From Escherichia phage vB_EcoP_S523, in sequence record MH031343: a stretch of 39,825 bases of DNA; one strand, given 5' to 3'. The notes under the pieces are model-generated. The model worked only from the letters and a program-made list of their open reading frames with translations. It was not told the origin of the DNA and made no database searches. Position numbers and translations under genes: made by a program. This document shows, one piece after another, positions 544 to 35,467 of the stretch (position 1 is its first letter; every line of letters starts with the position of its first letter).

Positions 544-566
544 TTTCCCATTAGTGAGTCGTATTG
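544..566 (-). promoter_or_regulatory. phage RNAP promoter (phi1.1B-like), CAATACGACTCACTAATGGGAAA
   Basis: Promoter core overlapping the stop codon of the 185-aa ORF, upstream of gene 1.1. Confidence 0.75.
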
Positions 567-1108
567 TCTGCAACCTTACGTGCAATCTCAATGCGACCCG
601 CTACATCTTTCTTATAATAGGTGAACTCTTTGCGCTCACCGTCAGTGCACGTCTGTGTCAGCAGGTAGCGGTCGGCTTGTTCAACCCAATGTAGACATGT
701 GACTTGCTTACCACATGAGCCGAGACCCAGCTTGAACTCAGTGCGCTTCCATCCAGCATCCGGGATGTGAGCAGTAAACTTGATAGACGTGATGTCACTG
801 TGTGTATACTCACGGATAATCTTCTTGGCTTCTTTAAGTTCCTTGCGGTACTCCACTGCCTCAGCGCGTAGACGCTCAATGAGTTCTCGTTGGTTCGACA
901 TGTCATATTGTTGTTCGAACTCTAAGGTACGGATTCGACCAGCTAGTTCCTGCTTATCTCGCCATCCATCTTCAAGTCTCTCTTTGAGTGCATGAGAGTT
1001 CTTCTCTTCTTTGATTAGCTTAGTGAGAAATACCTTTGAACGATTATAGTATGTTGCTGCAAGAATGGTTGATACGAGAGCGCCTACTGAAGTGATTAAA
1101 GTAAACAT
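551..1108 (-). CDS. hypothetical membrane-anchored protein, 185 aa (N-terminal TM helix, charged coiled-coil, Cys-containing C-terminal domain)
   Basis: ORF with ATG at 1106-1108 preceded by AAGAGGAAA RBS; hydrophobic N-terminus MFTLITSVGALVSTILAATYY; flanked by two phage promoters; no counterpart on the canonical T7 map between genes 1 and 1.1. Confidence 0.6.
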   Translation of the reverse strand: MFTLITSVGALVSTILAATYYNRSKVFLTKLIKEEKNSHALKERLEDGWRDKQELAGRIRTLEFEQQYDMSNQRELIERLRAEAVEYRKELKEAKKIIREYTHSDITSIKFTAHIPDAGWKRTEFKLGLGSCGKQVTCLHWVEQADRYLLTQTCTDGERKEFTYYKKDVAGRIEIARKVADNTTH

Positions 1109-1198: not shown

Positions 1199-3850
1199 TT
1201 AGGCAAACGCAAAGTCTGACTTAAGGATTTCTTGCAGGTCCAGAGAGCCTTTAGCTGGCATCTCAGGCATCTTATCAAGCTGTGTCTCGTGCAACTGGTC
1301 AGCAAATTGCTCATAGAAGTCTGCAAGTACATCGTTCTCTTCGTAAGTGTTGACCATCGTTTCACGCACTGCTTTAAACAGGTTGCCAGCAGCAGCCGGG
1401 ATAGTGCCAAAGGAGTCATGAATCAGTGCGAAGGATTCCACACCGTAGACCTCATTGGAGCGCACTACAGTCATTCTCAGGTGGCTTCCATCCATTGAGT
1501 GGACAAAGTTAGGTGCGATGCCTGACTCCTGTTTACGAGCGTCAATCCCGCTATCTTTGTTGGTGTTCACGGTAGGCTGTAGACGAATCTGGCCTAAGAA
1601 CATCAGGTTCAAGCGGGTCTGTACTGGCTTCTTATATTCCTGCCAGACCGGGAAGCCATCAGGAGTAACCCAATGTACCGCACAGCGCTTACGGAGGACT
1701 TCTTTAGTCTTTTTGTCCTTGACTTCAGCAGCCAGAAGTTTAGCAGCAGACTTCAACCAGTTCATCGCTTCAACCGCTGCGACAACTGTGACCGTTACCG
1801 ATTCCCAAATCAGTTTAGCCATGTAGCCAGCCGCTTGGTTCGGTTGAGTGAACATCAAGCCCTTGCCATCGTCGATAGCTGGCTGAATGGTGTCCTCAAG
1901 AACTTGGTCACGGAATCCGTACTCTTTGGAACCATAAGCCAACGTCATGACCGAACGCTTAGTGACCTTGCGAGTCACACCATAGGCCAGCCACTGACCA
2001 GCTAACTCTTTCGTTCCCAGCTTGAGCTTCTCAGTGATTTCACCAGTGTCCTTGTTTGTCACGGTTTCCACTTCGTTATCAGTGCCGTTGACTACCGCTT
2101 CGCGGAGCATCTCGTTCACACGTTCCGCAACGATTCGGTAGATGTCCTGTACTTCCTTGCTCGGCAGCAGGTTAACCGCACGACCACCAACCTCATCACG
2201 GAGCATCGCGGAGAAGTGCTGAATACCGGAGCAGCTACCATCGAACGCCAGCGGAAGAGAGCAGTTGTAGTTCATCCCGTGGTGTTGCACACCTGCATAC
2301 TCAAAGCAGAATGCGAGGAAGCAGAACGGAGAGTCTTGCTCGGCCCACCAAGTGTTAGCAATCGGGTCAGCCGCAACGCTCATGATGTTCTCATGGTTGT
2401 CATCAATGAACTTGATGCGTTCTGCAAAGTCCACCTTGTCCACGCCAGCAGTGTTAGCACCGTGAATCTTCAGCCAGTAATACCCATCGACACCGATTGG
2501 TTTACCTTTAGCGAGCGTTAACAGACCCTTGGTCATGTCGTTGCCCTGCGGGTTGAACATCGGGACCGCGTACACACGACCGCGCCAGTCCATATTCATC
2601 GGGAACCAGATAGCTTTAAACTGTGCGAACTTATTGGCCTGACCTAACATGAACTCCATGCTCATGCGGCGTGACACTCGTGCCTTCTCTTTGCGGTAGA
2701 TTGCGGAGGCCGCTTTCTTCCATGCTTTGAGTGATGCCTCGTTGGTGTCGATGTCATCAGGTTTGACCGGGAGTTCTCCACGTTCCAGAGCGGGTACATC
2801 TTCAACCGGGCAATGCTTCCAGTTCACAATCTCGTTGACCACTGCCAGAACCTTCTTGTTAATCTTCCAAGGAGTATTCTGTGCGATGTTCACCGCCTTG
2901 TAGACTTCAGGCATATACACATCGTTGTAACGCTCAAGTCCCTTCTTGCTACCAGTGCGAACCAGAGAGAGAGGCTTGCGACCCGCAGCCCAATAGCCAC
3001 CACCGACCGGAGAAGTCCAAGGCTTCGGAGGGACCACGCAAGGCTGATACATCGGAGCGATTGCAGCCAGAGCGCCAGCACGTTTGGATAGCAGGTCTAC
3101 ATATTGTTCTGTTAACTGGATGTACTCGCCATCCTTCTCGATGTTCCCAGCGAACGGGCGGTGTAACTCAACGAGACCAGTAGACCCGATGAGCAGTTCC
3201 AACATGCGCACACCAACGTGAATTGATTCTTCAGGTGTCCATGTAGTCCACTTGGTTTGCAGTTGACCAGCATCAAGCATCTTGCCCTCTACGGCTTGCA
3301 TGAATGCTTTCTTGTAGACGATACCAACGCGCTTGTTCAGTGCCTCCTGTACGTGATTCTTAAAGTGCTTCGCTTCTTCGTCACGGATGCGACCAAAACG
3401 CAGTTCATCCTCAATACTGCGACCAATCTTAGTGGCGACCGATTGCAGGTTGGTGAACTCTTCTTTCGTCAAGCAAGCGAGTGTGACCTTAAGTGTGATG
3501 AATGCAGCAGCTTCAGGTGCAACCTTCTGTACCAGATTGTAGGCTACTGGACGCTTACCACGCTTCGCTTCCACTTCAGTGAACCAAGTGTTCCACGCCT
3601 CGATGAACTTTGGTGCGAGGGATGACAGGAGCGGTTTAGCTACTGCGTTATCACCGAACTCACCCGCTTTGATTTGACGTTCCATTGCCTTTAAGAAACG
3701 TTTCTCACCCTCGGTGTGCGCCTCGTGTTCCAACTCAAGCTGCGTAGCTGCAAGCTGTGCGCCGTAATGGTCAGCCAGAATGTTGTACGGCTGGATTGCA
3801 TTAGCGATGTCAGAGAAGTCATTCTTTGGTGCGTTGATTACGTTAGTCAT
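1199..3850 (-). CDS. single-subunit DNA-directed RNA polymerase (T7 gp1 family), 883 aa
   Basis: Same length as T7 RNAP; conserved motifs (DGSCSGIQHFSAMLRDEVGG, palm/fingers, C-terminal FAFA); position after kinase gene 0.7. Confidence 0.97.
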   Translation of the reverse strand: MTNVINAPKNDFSDIANAIQPYNILADHYGAQLAATQLELEHEAHTEGEKRFLKAMERQIKAGEFGDNAVAKPLLSSLAPKFIEAWNTWFTEVEAKRGKRPVAYNLVQKVAPEAAAFITLKVTLACLTKEEFTNLQSVATKIGRSIEDELRFGRIRDEEAKHFKNHVQEALNKRVGIVYKKAFMQAVEGKMLDAGQLQTKWTTWTPEESIHVGVRMLELLIGSTGLVELHRPFAGNIEKDGEYIQLTEQYVDLLSKRAGALAAIAPMYQPCVVPPKPWTSPVGGGYWAAGRKPLSLVRTGSKKGLERYNDVYMPEVYKAVNIAQNTPWKINKKVLAVVNEIVNWKHCPVEDVPALERGELPVKPDDIDTNEASLKAWKKAASAIYRKEKARVSRRMSMEFMLGQANKFAQFKAIWFPMNMDWRGRVYAVPMFNPQGNDMTKGLLTLAKGKPIGVDGYYWLKIHGANTAGVDKVDFAERIKFIDDNHENIMSVAADPIANTWWAEQDSPFCFLAFCFEYAGVQHHGMNYNCSLPLAFDGSCSGIQHFSAMLRDEVGGRAVNLLPSKEVQDIYRIVAERVNEMLREAVVNGTDNEVETVTNKDTGEITEKLKLGTKELAGQWLAYGVTRKVTKRSVMTLAYGSKEYGFRDQVLEDTIQPAIDDGKGLMFTQPNQAAGYMAKLIWESVTVTVVAAVEAMNWLKSAAKLLAAEVKDKKTKEVLRKRCAVHWVTPDGFPVWQEYKKPVQTRLNLMFLGQIRLQPTVNTNKDSGIDARKQESGIAPNFVHSMDGSHLRMTVVRSNEVYGVESFALIHDSFGTIPAAAGNLFKAVRETMVNTYEENDVLADFYEQFADQLHETQLDKMPEMPAKGSLDLQEILKSDFAFA

Positions 3851-5330: not shown

Positions 5331-5789
5331 TTATGCTACCTGCCAGTATTTGCCGAACTCATCGACCGTGAAGCAGCCTTGGATTGGTGCACCTTTAGGG
5401 ATGCGCTGGAAACTACCCGACAAACGTTCAGCCTTATAGCCGTCAATGCCTTTAGCGTACACTAAGCCAGCCGTGTGAGTCTGTGACTTATAGACCAGTA
5501 CGCAATCTTGTTCCCACTCATTACAGGCCAGTCGTGCGACATTAAGAACCTGTGCCTTGTCTTTACAACGTACACGGATTGTTTTCTCTTCAGTCGGTGC
5601 ACTTGAGATGGCTTCGCGGTAACAGCCAGTTAAATCGGTAGACTCAACGCTACCATAAAGACCCGGTGCGTTGCGCAGGTTGTTAACCATGTGGCGGTGG
5701 CGACTCATGTTGACCTCATCGTCGAGGTTAGAACGGAATGCGCTTACCAGTACATAGAAAACATTAGCTTGCTCTTTAGTGTGAATCAT
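5331..5789 (-). CDS. gene 0.3 S-adenosylmethionine lyase (T3-type SAMase, anti-restriction), 152 aa
   Basis: First gene downstream of the early promoters; ATG at 5787-5789 with AAGGA RBS gives 152 aa; not acidic like T7 Ocr; resembles recalled T3 SAMase (ANVFYVLVSAFRSNL, CNEWEQDCVLVYKSQTHTAGLVYAKGIDGYKAERL). Confidence 0.65.
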   Translation of the reverse strand: MIHTKEQANVFYVLVSAFRSNLDDEVNMSRHRHMVNNLRNAPGLYGSVESTDLTGCYREAISSAPTEEKTIRVRCKDKAQVLNVARLACNEWEQDCVLVYKSQTHTAGLVYAKGIDGYKAERLSGSFQRIPKGAPIQGCFTVDEFGKYWQVA

Positions 5790-5973
5790 GATGATTTCCT
5801 TAGTTGCAGTGATTATCATAAAGGCTTCTCTTTCGAGTCACCTTGAGTTAATCGCTGTTGTCGTCGTCATCTCAAGAGTGCTTATTGTCCAAATTGTTAA
5901 AGAGCTTTAAGTGCAGGTTTGTTAGCACCGAGTCACTTTCAGTGTGTGACCTCACAAGAACGCTATGTCGTAC

Positions 5974-7439: not shown

Positions 7440-9197
7440 TTACCACTCAATGAAGCAGCTAGAGTCTCCATCGTCCTCGTAGTAGATGTCTACGCCACCA
7501 GCCTCGTAGCTATGGATAGCATCACCACCAATGGTCTGTTTCTCCATGTGGTGTTCAAGGAACTCAAGGGTCATAGCTTCCTCACCTACCTTAGAGTCCA
7601 CCTGCATCCCTTCACGAAGGAACTCGATACCCAATGCGATAGCATCAAGACGGTCATCGTGTGCCACAGCGCCCTTCTCACGAGTCATACGGGTCATCTG
7701 ATAGAACGCACTGTAGCGAACATCATGTTTCCCATCAAGGTCACGAGCGGTCTGGTAGTCCTCACGGATTACTTCGTCACGGATGATAAGGCGGTGTGCA
7801 CCCATCAACGGTTCGATAGTATCGCAGATACGCATCTCCTTCATGCCACGAGCGCGAATCTCTTCTAAGGCACACTTGTGGTGCTTCAGGAGAACCGGAG
7901 AGAATACCTTACCAAACATACCATCACCGAAGTTACTCTCGTGTACGACCGTCTGTACCTTCCACTGCTTGGCCTTCTTAGCGAGCTTCTCTAGGGTAGG
8001 GTCATCGTAGCCACCACGGAACCCACCGACTTCCATCAAGTAGATGTAGCCGTTCAGGGTGTAGAGGACCGCGTAACCCGTTTCATCCTTACCACGACCA
8101 GAGGGGTCAATGACGAGAATCTTTTGCTGGTACTCAGCGGTCTTAGAGGAACACACATGGAAGCTGTGAATGTCGTCACCCTTCAGACCCACGTTAGGAA
8201 GTTCCTCATTGCGGTTCTGACGGTTCGGCAACCACTGGTAGGACAATGGGGCACGTTCAGTGTCCACTGCGCACACGATAGCGTCACGGAGCCTCAGAGG
8301 GTACTTCTCGGCATCACTCAGGTTAGGGTTGAGCATGAACTGTAACGTGTAACCAGCTTTACCATATTCGAGTTCACGTTCACGGAGGTCATCCATATCG
8401 AATCGAACAGGGTCAGTAGGTTGTCCACGAAGTAACTCATAGCCATCATCATACTCGGCCTTAAGCATAGGAGCCAATCGGTCGCCATAGTAGAGAGCCT
8501 CAGCATCATTACGTGGATACTGTGCTGGCCAGATTACTGTGCTATACCCTTTGTTATCCTCAAGTTCCTTATAGAGAGTCATCTCGGTTTGAGGTGTCCC
8601 AAGGTAGATAACACGAGAGGTAGGCAACGGCTTAAGCAACGCAGCAAACTCAGTTACCAACGTCCAGAGCTTCTCACGGGCAGAACTCGTAGAACTGTTG
8701 CCGGGAACCTCAACGTCATCCGCAATGATAATATCAGCACGGCTACCAGTCAACTGACCAGTAATACCTACAGACTTCACAGAAGGTGAGTGGTCGGGTT
8801 TCGCCAAGCCTACGTCAAAGCTAATCACAGAGTCACGCTGTCCCGGTCGAGGTTTCAACTCAGCGAGGAATGGCAGCAGGTCAATGATGTTCTTAATGAA
8901 GATGGAGTTAGCATCCGCACGTTCCTTAGAGGCAGACACGATGAGCACCTTAAGTTGAGGGTCACGCCATAGCACCCACACAACGAACGCACAGGTGATA
9001 AAGGACTTGCCGATACCACGGAACGCCTGAAGGATAAACTTCTTGTGGTCGCCATTAGCGAGTGTACGTGCCATATCAATCTGACACTTGGTTGGTTTAG
9101 GTAAGTTCAGAGCCTTCCATAAGACGAACAGGAAGGCCACGAAGTCACCCTTAAGTTGCGCCACGATGAGCGCATTCTTGTTTGCTTGAGTAGACAT
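7440..9197 (-). CDS. terminase large subunit (gp19), 585 aa
   Basis: Near-colinear with T7 gp19 ([54 protein letters not shown]). Confidence 0.95.
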
Positions 9198-28386: not shown

Positions 28387-28473
28387 TTACACACTCTTAG
28401 CTATAAATGCAGCCCACACCATAGCGAAGGCTACGATTGCGAACATTACGAACGCAACTGTTCCGGCGACCAT
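28387..28473 (-). CDS. gene 6.3-like small hydrophobic protein, 28 aa
   Basis: Hand-translated MVAGTVAFVMFAIVAFAMVWAAFIAKSV; AAGGAG RBS; overlaps the 3' end of gene 6. Confidence 0.3.
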   Translation of the reverse strand: MVAGTVAFVMFAIVAFAMVWAAFIAKSV

Positions 28474-29360
28474 AGGTAAATCTCCTTGTCGATAAAGTTG
28501 TACTCTTCGAATCGAAGTATGCGAGCCATCTGGCCTTGCTTAATGATTTCCTCTTCGGTCATCCCAGCTTTTGCACCAAGTGTCACAATGGCTTCCCATA
28601 GGGTTCGCTCACCCATGTCAACCTTTTTCCATTCGAGAACTGTCTGTCCCTTACGAGCACCAGACTTGAAAGTTTTCTCAACCTGTTCAAAGGCATACGG
28701 GTTCTCCAGCCACTCAGCGGTAGTCTCTCCCCAGCCCGGAATGCCACCATAGCCATCTGTCAAGTCACCTTTGATGGTCTGATAGATGTGCCAGTAGTCG
28801 GCAGTCGTCTGGTCTTGAGTCAAGATGTTACCAGTGGTACACCACAAGAAGTCACAATCAGGGATGGTCTTAAAGTCCTTATCACAGGAGACCAGCACAG
28901 CCTTCTTGAAACCAAAGTGTTTAGCACCAGACCCAATGATTCCCATTACGTCATCGCCCTCAAGTCGGTCCTCAAGGATAGACGTCCAGTCCTCACAGGC
29001 TTGAACACGCTCGACGAACGCACGGTAGCCTACAGGCTTACGGGATGCCTTACGGTTCTCCTTATAGGTTGGGTCCACCAGTTCCTTACGCCAGTTCACA
29101 GAGTCAGTGAAGGCCAATACGATAGGTGCATCACGCCAAGCCTTCTTACGGCTCGCATAGGACTTGATAGAGTCAACCAGAATGTTCCACGCTTTCCCAT
29201 GGTCACACTCTAAGGTCCACACATCGTCACCCCAATCGGTCTCGACTTCACTTGCTGCCATCGCTTGGAACACCAGCCAGTCACCATCCATTACGAGAAC
29301 ACCCTTATCGGATTTCCCTTGGCGTAACTCGTAGAACTCCTTCAGTGTAATTGCGCTCAT
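28446..29360 (-). CDS. 5'-3' exonuclease (gp6), 304 aa
   Basis: ATG at 29358-29360 gives MSAITLKEFYELRQG...GVLVMDGDWLVFQAM, colinear with T7 gp6; upstream part of track ORF is an extension. Confidence 0.9.
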   Translation of the reverse strand: MSAITLKEFYELRQGKSDKGVLVMDGDWLVFQAMAASEVETDWGDDVWTLECDHGKAWNILVDSIKSYASRKKAWRDAPIVLAFTDSVNWRKELVDPTYKENRKASRKPVGYRAFVERVQACEDWTSILEDRLEGDDVMGIIGSGAKHFGFKKAVLVSCDKDFKTIPDCDFLWCTTGNILTQDQTTADYWHIYQTIKGDLTDGYGGIPGWGETTAEWLENPYAFEQVEKTFKSGARKGQTVLEWKKVDMGERTLWEAIVTLGAKAGMTEEEIIKQGQMARILRFEEYNFIDKEIYLWSPEQLRS

Positions 29361-29566
29361 ACGCAACCTCCCATCTTCTTCAGGAATCGGACACCAGAGC
29401 CTGTTACTTCCCAAGCGCCAGCATTACGCCCATCGACTGATAGGCAAGAGATATGACCACGACTCGCAGCCTCAGCCACCAGTGACGCATTGTTGCGCAC
29501 ATAGTTCGACTGAAAGGTCTTAGGGCAGCTTTTGATAGCCGCCAGTACACGTAGATATTCACCCAT
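29357..29566 (-). CDS. gp5.7-like protein, 69 aa
   Basis: Same length as T7 gp5.7; position between gp5.5 and gene 6; overlaps gene 6 start by 4 nt. Confidence 0.6.
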   Translation of the reverse strand: MGEYLRVLAAIKSCPKTFQSNYVRNNASLVAEAASRGHISCLSVDGRNAGAWEVTGSGVRFLKKMGGCV

Positions 29567-29850
29567 TACTTCACCTCACGGATAGTTGCTGGAGAAACCT
29601 TCAGACCATCTTCCGGTAACTCGGTACGAATGAACTCTCGCATACCCTGTTTGGCGGCAAATGAGATAGCACCCTCGACACCATGAGTCAGCGCTTGTAC
29701 CAGAAGTTCACGGTCACGGGGACTAATCTTCTCACCAGCCGCAGCCTTCTTAGCCAAGTGAACCAGTTCCTCAGTGAATCCTTCCTCCATCTCGGAGGTG
29801 ATTACAGCGGTGACTTCGAATGATACTTTAAAGCGTTTAGTAATAGCCAT
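29566..29850 (-). CDS. gp5.5-like protein (T7 gp5.5 binds host H-NS), 94 aa
   Basis: MAITKRFKVSFEVTA... resembles T7 gp5.5 N-terminus; position downstream of the HNH gene. Confidence 0.65.
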   Translation of the reverse strand: MAITKRFKVSFEVTAVITSEMEEGFTEELVHLAKKAAAGEKISPRDRELLVQALTHGVEGAISFAAKQGMREFIRTELPEDGLKVSPATIREVK

Positions 29851-30172
29851 GATATTTCTCCTTTGCTTCTAATGTGATGACCTTCCGCTCTCGGTTGGTC
29901 TTGATTACGTGTTCCCGCTTGGGGATACACTGTAGGTGCTCTACGTTACAGCACCCACGGTTTAGGCATAGATGGTCTATCTCATACCCTTCTGGTATCT
30001 TTCCGTGGACGTTCTCCCACACGAATCGGTGGAACATGAAAGCAACCTTCTCACCCTTGCGGGACGAGCCTATGCTATACCGGAAGTACCCATCTTTGTT
30101 CCTCTTATGGGAGACGCAGACGATACAGCCAGTCGGCATAGTGTGAAACCTAAGCGTAGCAACGCCTCCCAT
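29837..30172 (-). CDS. HNH family endonuclease (homing-endonuclease-like; same position as T7 gene 5.3), 111 aa
   Basis: His-Me finger signature FHRFVWENVHGKIPEGYEIDHLCLNRGCCNVEHLQ with flanking Cys pairs; strong RBS AAGGAGGT; wedged between DNA polymerase and gene 5.5 with a 14-nt overlap. Confidence 0.8.
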   Translation of the reverse strand: MGGVATLRFHTMPTGCIVCVSHKRNKDGYFRYSIGSSRKGEKVAFMFHRFVWENVHGKIPEGYEIDHLCLNRGCCNVEHLQCIPKREHVIKTNRERKVITLEAKEKYHGYY

Positions 30173-30183
30173 AGTTTACCTCC

Positions 30184-32298
30184 TTAGTGACAAACGGCCC
30201 AATTCGGCCCCATCTTTCCTTCAGTATCCAGTTGACACCTGAAGTTAAAGTGGTCGCCAACCCAGCGCATAGCCTGTTGAGATACTTCGATTACAACTTT
30301 GGCAATCTCTTCAGTACGGCAAGCAAGCTGTTGCTCATCGTGTATCCACCCCATGAGGCAGAAGTCACCATCCCAGCCGTGCTTGTATCCCATCTCAAGG
30401 AGCATCTCTTCTGTCTTGACAATCCACAGTTTACAAATCAGAGCACCAGCAGATTGCAACAAGGTGTTCAACGCAGCGTGAGGACTACGGACATGGACTT
30501 TACGACCATCCAAGCCACGAACCCAACGGCGCTTCCAAGTTACCTTCTGTTCGCCACCAACCCACTTAGAGTCCTTGACGAGTGTACCTGTGATTGCTTC
30601 ACGTAACGCAGCGATAGCCGGAGTTTGCTCAAGGAAGTTCTTGATGAGTCGCTTACCATCTTCGGCAGTGCCACCAACAATCTGTCCAATCTTCGCAGCA
30701 CCAGCACCATAGAGGAACCCATAGATAAACGTCTTAGCGTTATCACGAGTAGGCAGACCAGCAGCCATCTGGTTCTTCGTATGGATGTCACCCGTTAGGA
30801 TGGTCTCAACGTACTCACCTTCGTCATAACGATACATGAAGTGACCTAAGCAACGTAGCTCAAGGCCGGACGCATCCACACCCACTTGAATCCAAGGGTC
30901 TGGCTTACCGTCTTTCATGTTGTGCTCGGCACCGAAAGCAGCACGGCAAGGTTCACCATAAGCAGCACGGATAGAAGGCACCTGTGCCACGTTAGGGAAG
31001 CTATGAGTTGCACGTCCAGTTACCGCACCGTTCGGGTTAACGCTACCGTGAATACGACCATCGTCTCCAATCATTCGGAGCCAGCCGTTATCACCTTCAG
31101 CAACCTGACCGATACGCTTCTGAATCATAAGGTATTCTTTAATCAACTCAATGCAACGCTGTGCATCAGGGTCGTCTACCTTAACGTGCTCTAAGACTTC
31201 ATCGTCTACCTTTGGTGCACCACTAGGAGTGAACTCAACTGGAACCCATCCAGCTTTGGTAAGCACACGAGTGATGTGGTCACGACTAGCAGGGTTAAAC
31301 ACAACGTGCTCTACAGGCGTGTAAGGTGCGCCCTCTACGTAATCACGAGTGTCCAGTTCACAAGGCTCCAGACCTTCACGTTGCTTCTTGTTCTTTGGCT
31401 TCTTAAAGATGCCACCCTGTTTCGGATACTTCACACGAGGATACTTAGTGAGAGGCTTACCAGTTCTCGGATGACGGAATGCTTCAACGCCACCCTTAGC
31501 CTGATACCATGAGCCGAAAGTGTTGGTCAGTTCGACCAGCAGTTCACCACGGCGACCAGCCAGTTCAGCGTAGAGATTCTCTAAGGACTTGATGTCAATA
31601 GGGAAACCATTACGTTCCATCTTGGCTAACAACCACGCAGCATCGTGTTCCAGTTTGACAGCCTCAAGGCTACCGTTCCAGAAACGTTCTGCTTCTGTGC
31701 TTCCAGCAGGTGTCTCGTTAGGGAAATAGAATGTGTTGCTACACAGTTTCTCGAAGAGAGCCTTGGTAACTACAACGTCTTGAACGTTATATTCCATCAT
31801 GTCTTCGTTGAAGAACAGCCACTCCATCCCCTCTTCGTATTCATCACCAGACTCTTCCAGTGACTTCTTAAAGTCGTCCTTGTACTCACCCTTCATTTCG
31901 CCTAAGCGGTAGCCCCACGCCTCAAGAGCGTGAGAGCCAAAGCGTTTACCCGGCAGCTTGCCAGAGCGCAGCAGACCAGCATCGGTGTCTTTGATGTTAG
32001 AGTAAATCAGTCGGGACATCACTAAGGTGTCCAAGACGTTCTCTTTCGGGAACTTAACGTCACGATTCAGAATCAGCTTCGCCAGCTTCTCGATAACAGG
32101 AACGTCATACTTGTGACCGTTGTGGAACACAATGAGACCACCACGAGCAACCTCGGCTTCGAGTGCATCAATGTATGCCCCAAAGTCATCAGGTCGGTAA
32201 CGGATGTACTGGTCGGTTGTGTAGTCGTAAGTCACCGCACAGTGAAATTGACTAACGTTGTGCAGCAACCCGTTTGTTTCGATGTCGGATAGTAACAT
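30184..32298 (-). CDS. DNA polymerase (gp5), 704 aa
   Basis: Same length as T7 gp5; conserved N-terminal exonuclease motif (SDIE.N.LL...FHC) and GLIVFHNGHKYDVP. Confidence 0.97.
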   Translation of the reverse strand: MLLSDIETNGLLHNVSQFHCAVTYDYTTDQYIRYRPDDFGAYIDALEAEVARGGLIVFHNGHKYDVPVIEKLAKLILNRDVKFPKENVLDTLVMSRLIYSNIKDTDAGLLRSGKLPGKRFGSHALEAWGYRLGEMKGEYKDDFKKSLEESGDEYEEGMEWLFFNEDMMEYNVQDVVVTKALFEKLCSNTFYFPNETPAGSTEAERFWNGSLEAVKLEHDAAWLLAKMERNGFPIDIKSLENLYAELAGRRGELLVELTNTFGSWYQAKGGVEAFRHPRTGKPLTKYPRVKYPKQGGIFKKPKNKKQREGLEPCELDTRDYVEGAPYTPVEHVVFNPASRDHITRVLTKAGWVPVEFTPSGAPKVDDEVLEHVKVDDPDAQRCIELIKEYLMIQKRIGQVAEGDNGWLRMIGDDGRIHGSVNPNGAVTGRATHSFPNVAQVPSIRAAYGEPCRAAFGAEHNMKDGKPDPWIQVGVDASGLELRCLGHFMYRYDEGEYVETILTGDIHTKNQMAAGLPTRDNAKTFIYGFLYGAGAAKIGQIVGGTAEDGKRLIKNFLEQTPAIAALREAITGTLVKDSKWVGGEQKVTWKRRWVRGLDGRKVHVRSPHAALNTLLQSAGALICKLWIVKTEEMLLEMGYKHGWDGDFCLMGWIHDEQQLACRTEEIAKVVIEVSQQAMRWVGDHFNFRCQLDTEGKMGPNWAVCH

Positions 32299-33347: not shown

Positions 33348-33560
33348 TTACAGGAAGAACTTGTTCAGGTCGGTTGCTTTCGCTGCAATCTTAGCAGCAG
33401 ACGTAACGCCAGCACTTGCATCTTCAGACAGTAGACGTGCCTGTTTCGCCAAGCGTTGAGCCTGTTCTGCATCCTTACGTGCCTTGTCGTTCAGACGTTT
33501 AGCTTCACGGAAGTACATTTTAACTACCAGCTTACCAAGAGTGTTGATGAATTTAAACAT
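33348..33560 (-). CDS. gene 4.3-like protein, 70 aa
   Basis: ATG at 33558-33560 with AAGGAG RBS, just downstream of a phage promoter; same length as T7 gp4.3; track ORF is an upstream extension. Confidence 0.5.
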   Translation of the reverse strand: MFKFINTLGKLVVKMYFREAKRLNDKARKDAEQAQRLAKQARLLSEDASAGVTSAAKIAAKATDLNKFFL

Positions 33561-33603
33561 TGCGATTCTCCTTAAGTGGATTGATAAGTGGGAACAGAGT
33601 GTC

Positions 33604-33626
33604 TGTCCCATTAGTGAGTTGTATTG
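33604..33626 (-). promoter_or_regulatory. variant phage RNAP promoter (phi4.3-like), CAATACAACTCACTAATGGGACA
   Basis: Promoter core inside the 3' end of gene 4, upstream of the gene 4.3-like ORF. Confidence 0.55.
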
Positions 33627-33691
33627 ATTGCTTTCTGTAGAGCGCCTGTTCGCGCTCGTTCAGTTCTTCCCACTGGTCTACCCAATGGCTA

Positions 33692-35467
<1,776 letters not shown>

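Follow-up and report, generated by a model that had tools for sequence, protein, structure and literature searches.

HNH nucleases of the His-Me-finger type are built around a motif in which a general-base histidine is followed by two downstream asparagine or histidine residues that position or bind metal. One of them, I-HmuI, is the nicking HNH homing endonuclease of the DNA polymerase intron of Bacillus phage SPO1. In phage T3, gene 5.3 reportedly invades related phages at their empty sites, and the protein it encodes is said to cut gene 5 of phage T7 at the same positions as I-TslI. The subject of the present analysis is gene 5.3 of Escherichia phage vB_EcoP_S523 (sequence record MH031343), a T7-group phage of the genus Berlinvirus whose complete-length genome of 39.8 kb makes up the stretch of 39,825 nucleotides (nt) referred to below as the window and is read on the reverse strand. 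Two papers (PMC8136825, PMC8845596) present I-TslI, from the T7-like phage PhiI, as an HNH homing endonuclease that nicks DNA and has a core site of 9 bp. The element in the window is itself already known, being a member of an experimentally characterised family and so annotated in several sister genomes. We put at roughly 80% the probability that gene 5.3 of the window, which is free-standing, codes for a homing endonuclease of the HNH (His-Me finger) type, a predicted nicking enzyme that would target motif C of the DNA polymerase gene, gene 5, in sensitive relatives, its own copy of the site being a variant.

Gene 5.3 (29837..30172, minus strand) starts with an ATG at 30170-30172, 11 nt past the stop codon of gene 5 as read from the sequence, and encodes a protein of 111 amino acids (aa), gp5.3, assigned to the HNH_3, or His-Me-finger, endonucleases. 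A compact HNH open reading frame (ORF) between genes 5 and 5.5, preceded by a strong ribosome-binding site and overlapping gene 5.5 by 14 nt, was what the original prediction had described, and each part of this description holds: the HNH_3 match scores 63.7 bits, and both neighbours are confirmed by Pfam. The Shine-Dalgarno sequence GGAGGT (30178..30183, minus strand), likewise read from the sequence, lies 5 nt upstream of the ATG, belongs to the inserted DNA and directly abuts the gene 5 stop codon TAA (30184-30186), the full match being AAGGAGGT; in the record of phage ETEP21B, the GGAGGT of gene 5.3 is annotated as a ribosome-binding site. At the other end, the stop codon of gene 5.3 (29837-29839) falls within gene 5.5, whose ATG lies at 29848-29850. 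Gene 5 (30184..32298, minus strand), the presumed host gene of the endonuclease's target, encodes a family-A DNA polymerase of 704 aa (Pfam DNA_pol_A, E=1.7e-41) and is uninterrupted, so that gene 5.3 is free-standing, as had been proposed. Gene 5.5 (29566..29850, minus strand), a Berlin-type allele of the H-NS-binding protein family (Phage_T7_55, E=3.8e-18), forms the downstream border of the insertion. The closest public relative is Enterobacter phage vB_SEqdws-315 (Berlinvirus, OK663600; hereafter 315), with 97.6% nt identity over 29300-30700 and also 97.6% over gene 5.

To find the boundaries of the insertion, the window and 11 relatives were compared at the junction of genes 5 and 5.5, where phages BSP161, Yepe2 and 285P show the empty site and phages 315, Carena and JSS1 the filled one. 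The inserted cassette (29863..30183, minus strand) measures 321 nt against the empty site of the HNH-less relatives and takes the place of 5 nt, TTAAC, which there separate the stop codon of gene 5 from the ribosome-binding site of gene 5.5. The empty site reads ...CACTAA-TTAAC-AGGAGAAATATCATG, or at greater length ...TGTCACTAA TTAAC AGGAGAAATATCATGGCT..., and its flanks are identical in the filled site. The cassette opens with its own Shine-Dalgarno sequence immediately after the polymerase stop codon. Its reading frame crosses the native ribosome-binding site and start of gene 5.5 to a TAA inside that gene, and the last 26 nt of the HNH ORF (29837..29862, minus strand; residues 104-111 and the stop codon) are therefore borrowed from sequence that the empty-site phages also have. 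The C-terminal tail of gp5.3 is probably dispensable; the T3 copy ends 10 codons earlier than the ORF of the window. The cassette is missing from relatives that are otherwise 90-95% identical; among 160 phage records that resemble the window in the flanks, just 7 have the whole region. A comparison of presence and absence among relatives had been suggested as a check of the original prediction, with universal presence and missing catalytic residues named as signs against it; the distribution is patchy (7/160), the empty site seen in BSP161, Yepe2 and 285P is precise, and the residues are conserved. On this comparison, the element is probably mobile.

The nuclease assignment rests on several kinds of evidence. 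Residues 46-89 of gp5.3 match Pfam HNH_3 (PF13392) at E=1.2e-17, far above the cut-off of 24.8 bits; a match to the I-PpoI-type zinc loop family stays below threshold, and 13 PHROG endonuclease families match the protein, the best at E=1.9e-28. A homologue search of a protein database gave 26 relatives, and 23 homologues were used for an alignment in which C16, N25, D27-Y29, R31, H48, R49, H79, H88, N93 and R96 are invariant and H67, C69, C74 and N76 are kept in at least 90% of the sequences. The candidate catalytic residues are D66, H67, H79 and H88, and C16, C69 and C74 are the conserved cysteines; position 66 is Asp in the window protein and Asn in most of the 23 homologues. Sequence-only searches of the PDB, with the single protein and with the 23-sequence profile, were uninformative and gave spurious top matches (transferrin, T-cell receptor), which made a fold comparison necessary. 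The AlphaFold model built from the 23-homologue alignment has a mean confidence (predicted local distance difference test, pLDDT) of 84 and is I-HmuI-like, with the beta-beta-alpha-metal fold; its weakest part is the tail, with pLDDT falling from 55 to 44 over residues 101-111. The ratio of non-synonymous to synonymous divergence (dN/dS, Nei-Gojobori) of gene 5.3 is 0.12 against Carena, 0.11 against JSS1, 0.07 against T3 and 0.05 against phiYeO3-12.

These data also bear on the notion that what remains here of a homing endonuclease gene is inactive, its frame still open only by chance or through recent arrival. The borrowed last 8 residues and stop codon, the poorly predicted tail, and the lack of any nuclease match below E=0.28 when solved structures were searched with the sequence of the single protein would all suit such a remnant. 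Against it, all motif residues are kept, the HNH_3 score lies well clear of its threshold, the I-HmuI-like model is confident, and no broken copy occurs among the 8 from Berlinvirus-like phages and the dozens of T3-like ones, dN/dS being near 0.1; purifying selection of this strength (0.05-0.12) means that the gene is not a decaying remnant, an explanation which we consider very improbable. By these measures, the ORF is an intact HNH_3 nuclease gene under purifying selection and no chance reading frame.

Relatives of gp5.3 were collected by tblastn against 50,697 phage records. Phage 315 encodes a 100% identical HNH protein at 2038..2373 of its record, with no coding sequence annotated over it; the record of phage JSS1 is also without an annotation of its HNH gene. 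Copies 93-99% identical occur in PcCB251, vB_YpEc11, Carena, ETEP21B, P1338 and JSS1, and some 110 further copies at 60-90% identity in T3, T7M, phiYeO3-12 and many podoviruses of Klebsiella, Citrobacter, Serratia and Escherichia. Where annotated, they are mostly labelled "gene 5.3", "HNH endonuclease" or "homing endonuclease" and are followed by the H-NS-binding gene 5.5. At the protein level, gp5.3 is 77.5% identical to the product of T3 gene 5.3 and 81.7% identical to that of phiYeO3-12; as judged by this comparison, gene 5.3 of the window is the orthologue of both.

Linkage to the polymerase gene extends through the family. Scanning IMG/VR with the alignment gave 80 loci with homologues 42-82% identical (loci are cited below, where needed, by our numbers with the prefix L), and every locus that could be resolved is tied to a family-A polymerase gene, the product of which is 25-76% identical to that of the window. 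In 44 of the 80, the homologue comes right after the polymerase gene, -17 to +18 nt from its stop codon except in L133; in 33 it lies inside the polymerase gene at motif C, with the second exon starting GAYGAR (D654 E655); the remaining three loci are unresolved. The free-standing arrangement also occurs on three metagenomic contigs reached through the protein database. In phages 13a and K1F, gene 5 is interrupted after codon H653, directly before D654, by about 600 nt of inserted DNA that encode an HNH protein of 131 aa; that of 13a is 50% identical to gp5.3 (BLASTP, E=2e-34). The 13a insertion maps at gene 5 nt 1959|1960, equivalent to 30340|30339 in the window; the free-standing gene lies only some 160 nt downstream of this point. 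Both phages have their gene 5 annotated in RefSeq as a two-piece join at motif C, which we take for an intron.

The same linkage also bears on another role that a small HNH protein could have. Helping terminase to cut concatemers during packaging, in the manner of HK97 gp74, is a common role of small stand-alone phage HNH proteins according to the discussion in PMC8845596. For gp5.3 this role is effectively refuted by the close relatives that are viable without the gene. Against it also stand the large terminase gene (7440..9197, Pfam), which lies more than 20 kb away, the HNH_3, I-HmuI-like kind of the protein, and the 77 of 80 homologues that are polymerase-associated (three being unresolved).

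The intron alleles point to the site at which the enzyme would act. In all 21 that could be mapped (21/21; L060-L108), representing 15 distinct contexts, the junction is TGGGTGCAT|GATGA, three synonymous third positions included; the polymerases concerned are only 41-93% identical to that of the window, yet the junction is the same at every nucleotide. T7 reads TGGGTACAT|GATGA at this site, and the window (30335..30348, minus strand) reads TGGATACAC|GATGA, corresponding to codons W651 I652 H653 | D654 E655. In T7, 285P, PhiV-1 and Kvp1, the site has the form TGGGTxCAy|GAyGA, with Val at 652. The site of the window differs from the intron consensus at -6, -4 and -1 and from T7 at -6 and -1, and T3 and T7, near-identical around the site, differ at -6, -1 and +3. 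The sequence TGGGTNCAT|GATGA is found in none of 54 free-standing carriers (44 IMG/VR loci, the window and 9 GenBank phages). Among T7/T3/Berlin-type polymerases, A at position -6, which in place of G makes residue 652 Ile rather than Val, occurs in 14 of 16 genomes with a free-standing T3-type gene and in 6 of the 29 that lack one (Fisher p=2e-5, shared ancestry ignored). These comparisons are consistent with the proposal, for which we regard them as good support, that the enzyme would act on the motif-C site of gene 5 and that a variant site would shield the carriers; the site of the window would then be a resistant allele. The original prediction had proposed that a cleavage site be sought near the gene 5/5.5 junction; the comparison points instead to motif C, about 160 nt upstream.

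Several observations weigh against this reading. Ile652 is also present in the HNH-less phages BSP161 and Yepe2/Berlin and at the HNH-less loci L019, L020 and L033, so that the allele is not diagnostic; it may simply be the ancestral Berlinvirus allele, and the association statistics take no account of common descent. Two free-standing copies (L055, L058) adjoin polymerase genes with G at -6, though in a different context (TTTGTCCAT). The invariance of the junction could reflect intron-exon pairing for splicing and not recognition by an endonuclease; both co-conversion during homing and pairing with an intron guide sequence are possible sources of it. Group I introns were not detected in 13a, Yepe2 or L050 at the Rfam gathering threshold, probably because the ribozyme is interrupted by the inserted ORFs, and the status of these insertions as introns rests on the annotation of the records and on PMC6083498. 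Finally, longer HNH homologues (131-151 aa) carry a C-terminal helix-turn-helix extension which gp5.3 is without, leaving its sequence specificity uncertain.

A second intron site in the polymerase gene, at motif B, was considered as the target and rejected: within 45 nt on either side of gene nt 1573 (about window position 30726), nothing separates HNH-carrying from HNH-less phages. Berlinviruses of the Yepe2/Berlin type (Yepe2, L006 3015..5809) have a 679-nt intron in polymerase motif B after ...AAGACGTTTA, equivalent to about 30726|30725 in the window, which has none there. This motif B intron (PMC6083498) encodes an Endonuclease VII-type protein (Pfam PF02945, E=4e-23) unrelated to gp5.3; what looks like an insertion at this spot, but without the Endonuclease VII-type ORF, is seen at IMG/VR loci L041 and L049.

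If gene 5.3 is a homing endonuclease gene directed at motif C, its mode of action may be pictured as follows. With a spacer of 11 nt, too short to hold a promoter, the gene would be transcribed together with gene 5 as a middle (class II) gene; it would be translated from its own strong ribosome-binding site. The product, a small monomeric enzyme, would use its N-terminal beta-sheet region and HNH core to recognise the motif-C site (about TGGGTACAT|GATGA) in co-infecting relatives without gene 5.3, and would probably nick one strand, like I-HmuI and I-TslI. Repair of the break by replication and recombination, with the endonuclease-carrying genome as template, would copy the cassette and the roughly 160 nt between it and the cut into the recipient; such homing with co-conversion would also exclude, in part, the recipient's local markers, an effect which the original prediction had likewise considered possible. 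The phage's own polymerase gene would escape through the G-to-A change at -6 of its motif-C site, Val652Ile.

The sequences around the gene are mosaic. Over the last 215 nt or so of gene 5, one version, encoding ...CLMGWIHDEQQLA..., is common to all 8 HNH-carrying Berlinvirus-like genomes (8/8), and 285P, PhiV-1 and Kvp1 have a T7-like version (AYMAWVHDEIQVA) that is 67% identical to it over 215 nt. The two versions part at about nt 1880-1900 of gene 5, a short way upstream of motif C. On the other side, gene 5.5 comes after the same HNH gene in two allelic forms whose proteins are about 55% identical; the second form is found in Carena, JSS1, YpEc11 and P1338. From the shared 3' allele of gene 5 and the two alleles of gene 5.5 it follows that the HNH gene and the 3' end of gene 5 are linked and that a recombination boundary lies at the HNH gene. 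Such a mosaic would be expected of homing, because repair tracts would run from the cut at motif C through the cassette, and it is in line with a pattern noted for phages in general, the marking of exchange boundaries by nuclease genes (PMC10055350).

Recombination and selection at this locus also decide how much weight should be given to a resident HNH gene that is no longer mobile, domesticated or "fixed" for some other role such as degrading host or competitor DNA or aiding recombination-dependent replication. Constraint on the gene (dN/dS 0.05-0.12 across copies diverged to a synonymous divergence, dS, of 0.5-2) is stronger than would be expected of a purely selfish gene under the classic homing cycle, gp5.3 is minimal in size and without a helix-turn-helix DNA-binding extension, and the gene is very widespread at the gene 5/5.5 slot in Teetrevirus, Przondovirus and Kayfunavirus-like phages, all of which would be understandable if it had settled there. 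Purifying selection is, however, also expected of an element that continually re-invades, and the clean presence or absence of the gene at one site among phages 90-95% identical, together with the recombination breakpoints immediately downstream, speaks for continued movement. Moreover, strict linkage to the polymerase gene throughout the family, insertions at motif C included, suits a homing enzyme and would be unexpected of a general nuclease. We therefore regard a resident gene as unlikely, if the least improbable of the alternatives. Neither this explanation nor an inactive remnant nor a packaging nuclease fits the polymorphism, the selection and the polymerase linkage as well as a homing endonuclease does.

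The slot between genes 5 and 5.5 is used by others as well. Within Berlinvirus it exists in at least four states, namely empty, with the T3-type HNH gene, with a T7-type PD-(D/E)XK gene (Kvp1) and with an ORF of 75 aa, so that three unrelated occupants share it. The original prediction had taken T7 gene 5.3 as the analogue of the gene in the window. T7 gene 5.3 (L008 2484..2840) and its Kvp1 counterpart (L007 2998..3378) do occupy the same intergenic slot and encode small nuclease-family proteins; these proteins, however, are of the PD-(D/E)XK class (Pfam PDDEXK_5, E about 1e-10), and the best solved relative of the T7 protein is PDB entry 2ost, which we take to be I-Ssp6803I. When the two families were used as separate tblastn queries, the T7 and Kvp1 proteins had no match on the HNH-carrying loci, nor was there one in reverse. 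Membership of PDDEXK_5 and the lack of similarity rule out T7 gene 5.3 as a homologue, and the true orthologue is gene 5.3 of T3 and phiYeO3-12. The earlier interpretation is thus supported in part, being right in kind and wrong in the analogue it named and in the location of the target.

Two observations on the other occupants may be added. The T7-type PD-(D/E)XK gene is variably present in Berlinviruses and may be a second homing endonuclease gene competing for the slot. The 75-aa ORF, which has no Pfam match, was seen in the slot in PhiV-1 (L005 3249..3476) and at IMG/VR loci L021, L023 and L025, always accompanied by the T7-like version of the last 215 nt or so of gene 5. One may speculate, tentatively and with the odds rather against it, that the slot is a landing pad fought over by unrelated selfish nucleases (T3-type HNH, T7-type PD-(D/E)XK and possibly the 75-aa ORF), each tied to its own version of the last 215 nt or so of gene 5, and that the HNH gene drove and maintains Val652Ile, beside the catalytic Asp654, as a mark of self-immunity. 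If this were true, conflict between selfish elements would shape the active-site motif of an essential replication enzyme and would set recombination boundaries in Berlinviruses.

Elsewhere in the genome, tblastn on the window revealed no second HNH paralogue. Pfam also identifies the RNA polymerase gene (1199..3850) and the exonuclease gene, gene 6 (28446..29360). Gene 5.7 (29357..29566) runs straight into gene 6 with a 4-nt overlap; the RecBCD-inhibitor gene 5.9 is missing from the window, as it is from phages 315, BSP161 and 285P, and a gene 5.9 of roughly 180 nt sits at that spot in JSS1, PhiV-1, Yepe2 and Kvp1. Gene 5.9 is therefore a second presence or absence polymorphism, a few hundred nt from the HNH gene. 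The early region is T3-like rather than T7-like, since it contains a T3-type S-adenosylmethionine lyase gene (Pfam S-AdoMet_lyase, E=1e-43) at 5331..5819 and a gene resembling T3 gene 1.05 at 551..1108. At 33553..33972, an ORF of 139 aa (DUF5480, E=2e-18) overlaps in another frame the 3' end of a 582-aa ORF (33692..35440), resembling the arrangement of gene 4.2 at the end of the primase/helicase gene 4 in the annotation of T3 and phiYeO3-12.

With regard to annotation, the correct label for the gene in the window is T3-type gene 5.3 HNH homing endonuclease and not T7 gene 5.3. A gap exists in the public records: the gene is absent from the annotation of phage 315, and several other copies are not labelled as nucleases. 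As a homing endonuclease gene, it could bias inheritance in mixed infections and also in crosses of the phage-cocktail or engineering kind, dragging the 3' end of the polymerase gene along. The prediction that follows from the polymerase linkage, the invariant intron junction at motif C and the absence of the site wherever the gene is free-standing is that the target would be TGGGTACAT|GATGA and that immunity would be conferred by G-to-A at -6. This extends a published concept and opens no new one.

Compared with known systems, the locus is closest to gene 5.3 of T3 and phiYeO3-12, which lies in the same slot right after gene 5 and before gene 5.5, falls in the same size class and has the same motif residues; the host polymerase has Ile652 (TGGATxCAy) in all three phages. 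The gene of the window differs in belonging to a separate Berlinvirus sub-lineage (dS about 1.9-2.3 against T3 and phiYeO3-12), in the 10 codons by which it extends beyond the T3 ORF into gene 5.5, and in the 3' allele of gene 5 that adjoins it (CLMGWIHDEQQLA in the window, AYMAWIHDEIQVA in T3). Activity has reportedly been shown for the T3 protein only. I-HmuI (PDB 1u3e) shares with gp5.3 the N-terminal beta-sheet and the HNH core, and D66, H67, H79 and H88 of gp5.3 are spaced like D74, H75, N87 and N96, which we take to be the motif residues of I-HmuI with the roles usually given to them; a weak phmmer alignment of residues 20-73 of the query to residues 30-81 of the I-HmuI chain has the same residue offset. 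I-HmuI is larger, however, at 174 aa; it possesses a helix-turn-helix domain and two more helices, all of them absent from gp5.3, has Asn at two motif positions where gp5.3 has His, and is encoded in an intron, at another site of the polymerase gene. The intron-encoded HNH genes of T7-like polymerase genes (13a/K1F, I-TslI type) are homologous to gene 5.3 and share its host gene. In 13a and K1F, they lie within the roughly 600 nt of inserted DNA by which the polymerase gene is split, and they encode proteins of at least 131 aa with a C-terminal extension, whereas the gene of the window is shorter and stands outside the ORF of a polymerase gene that has no intron.

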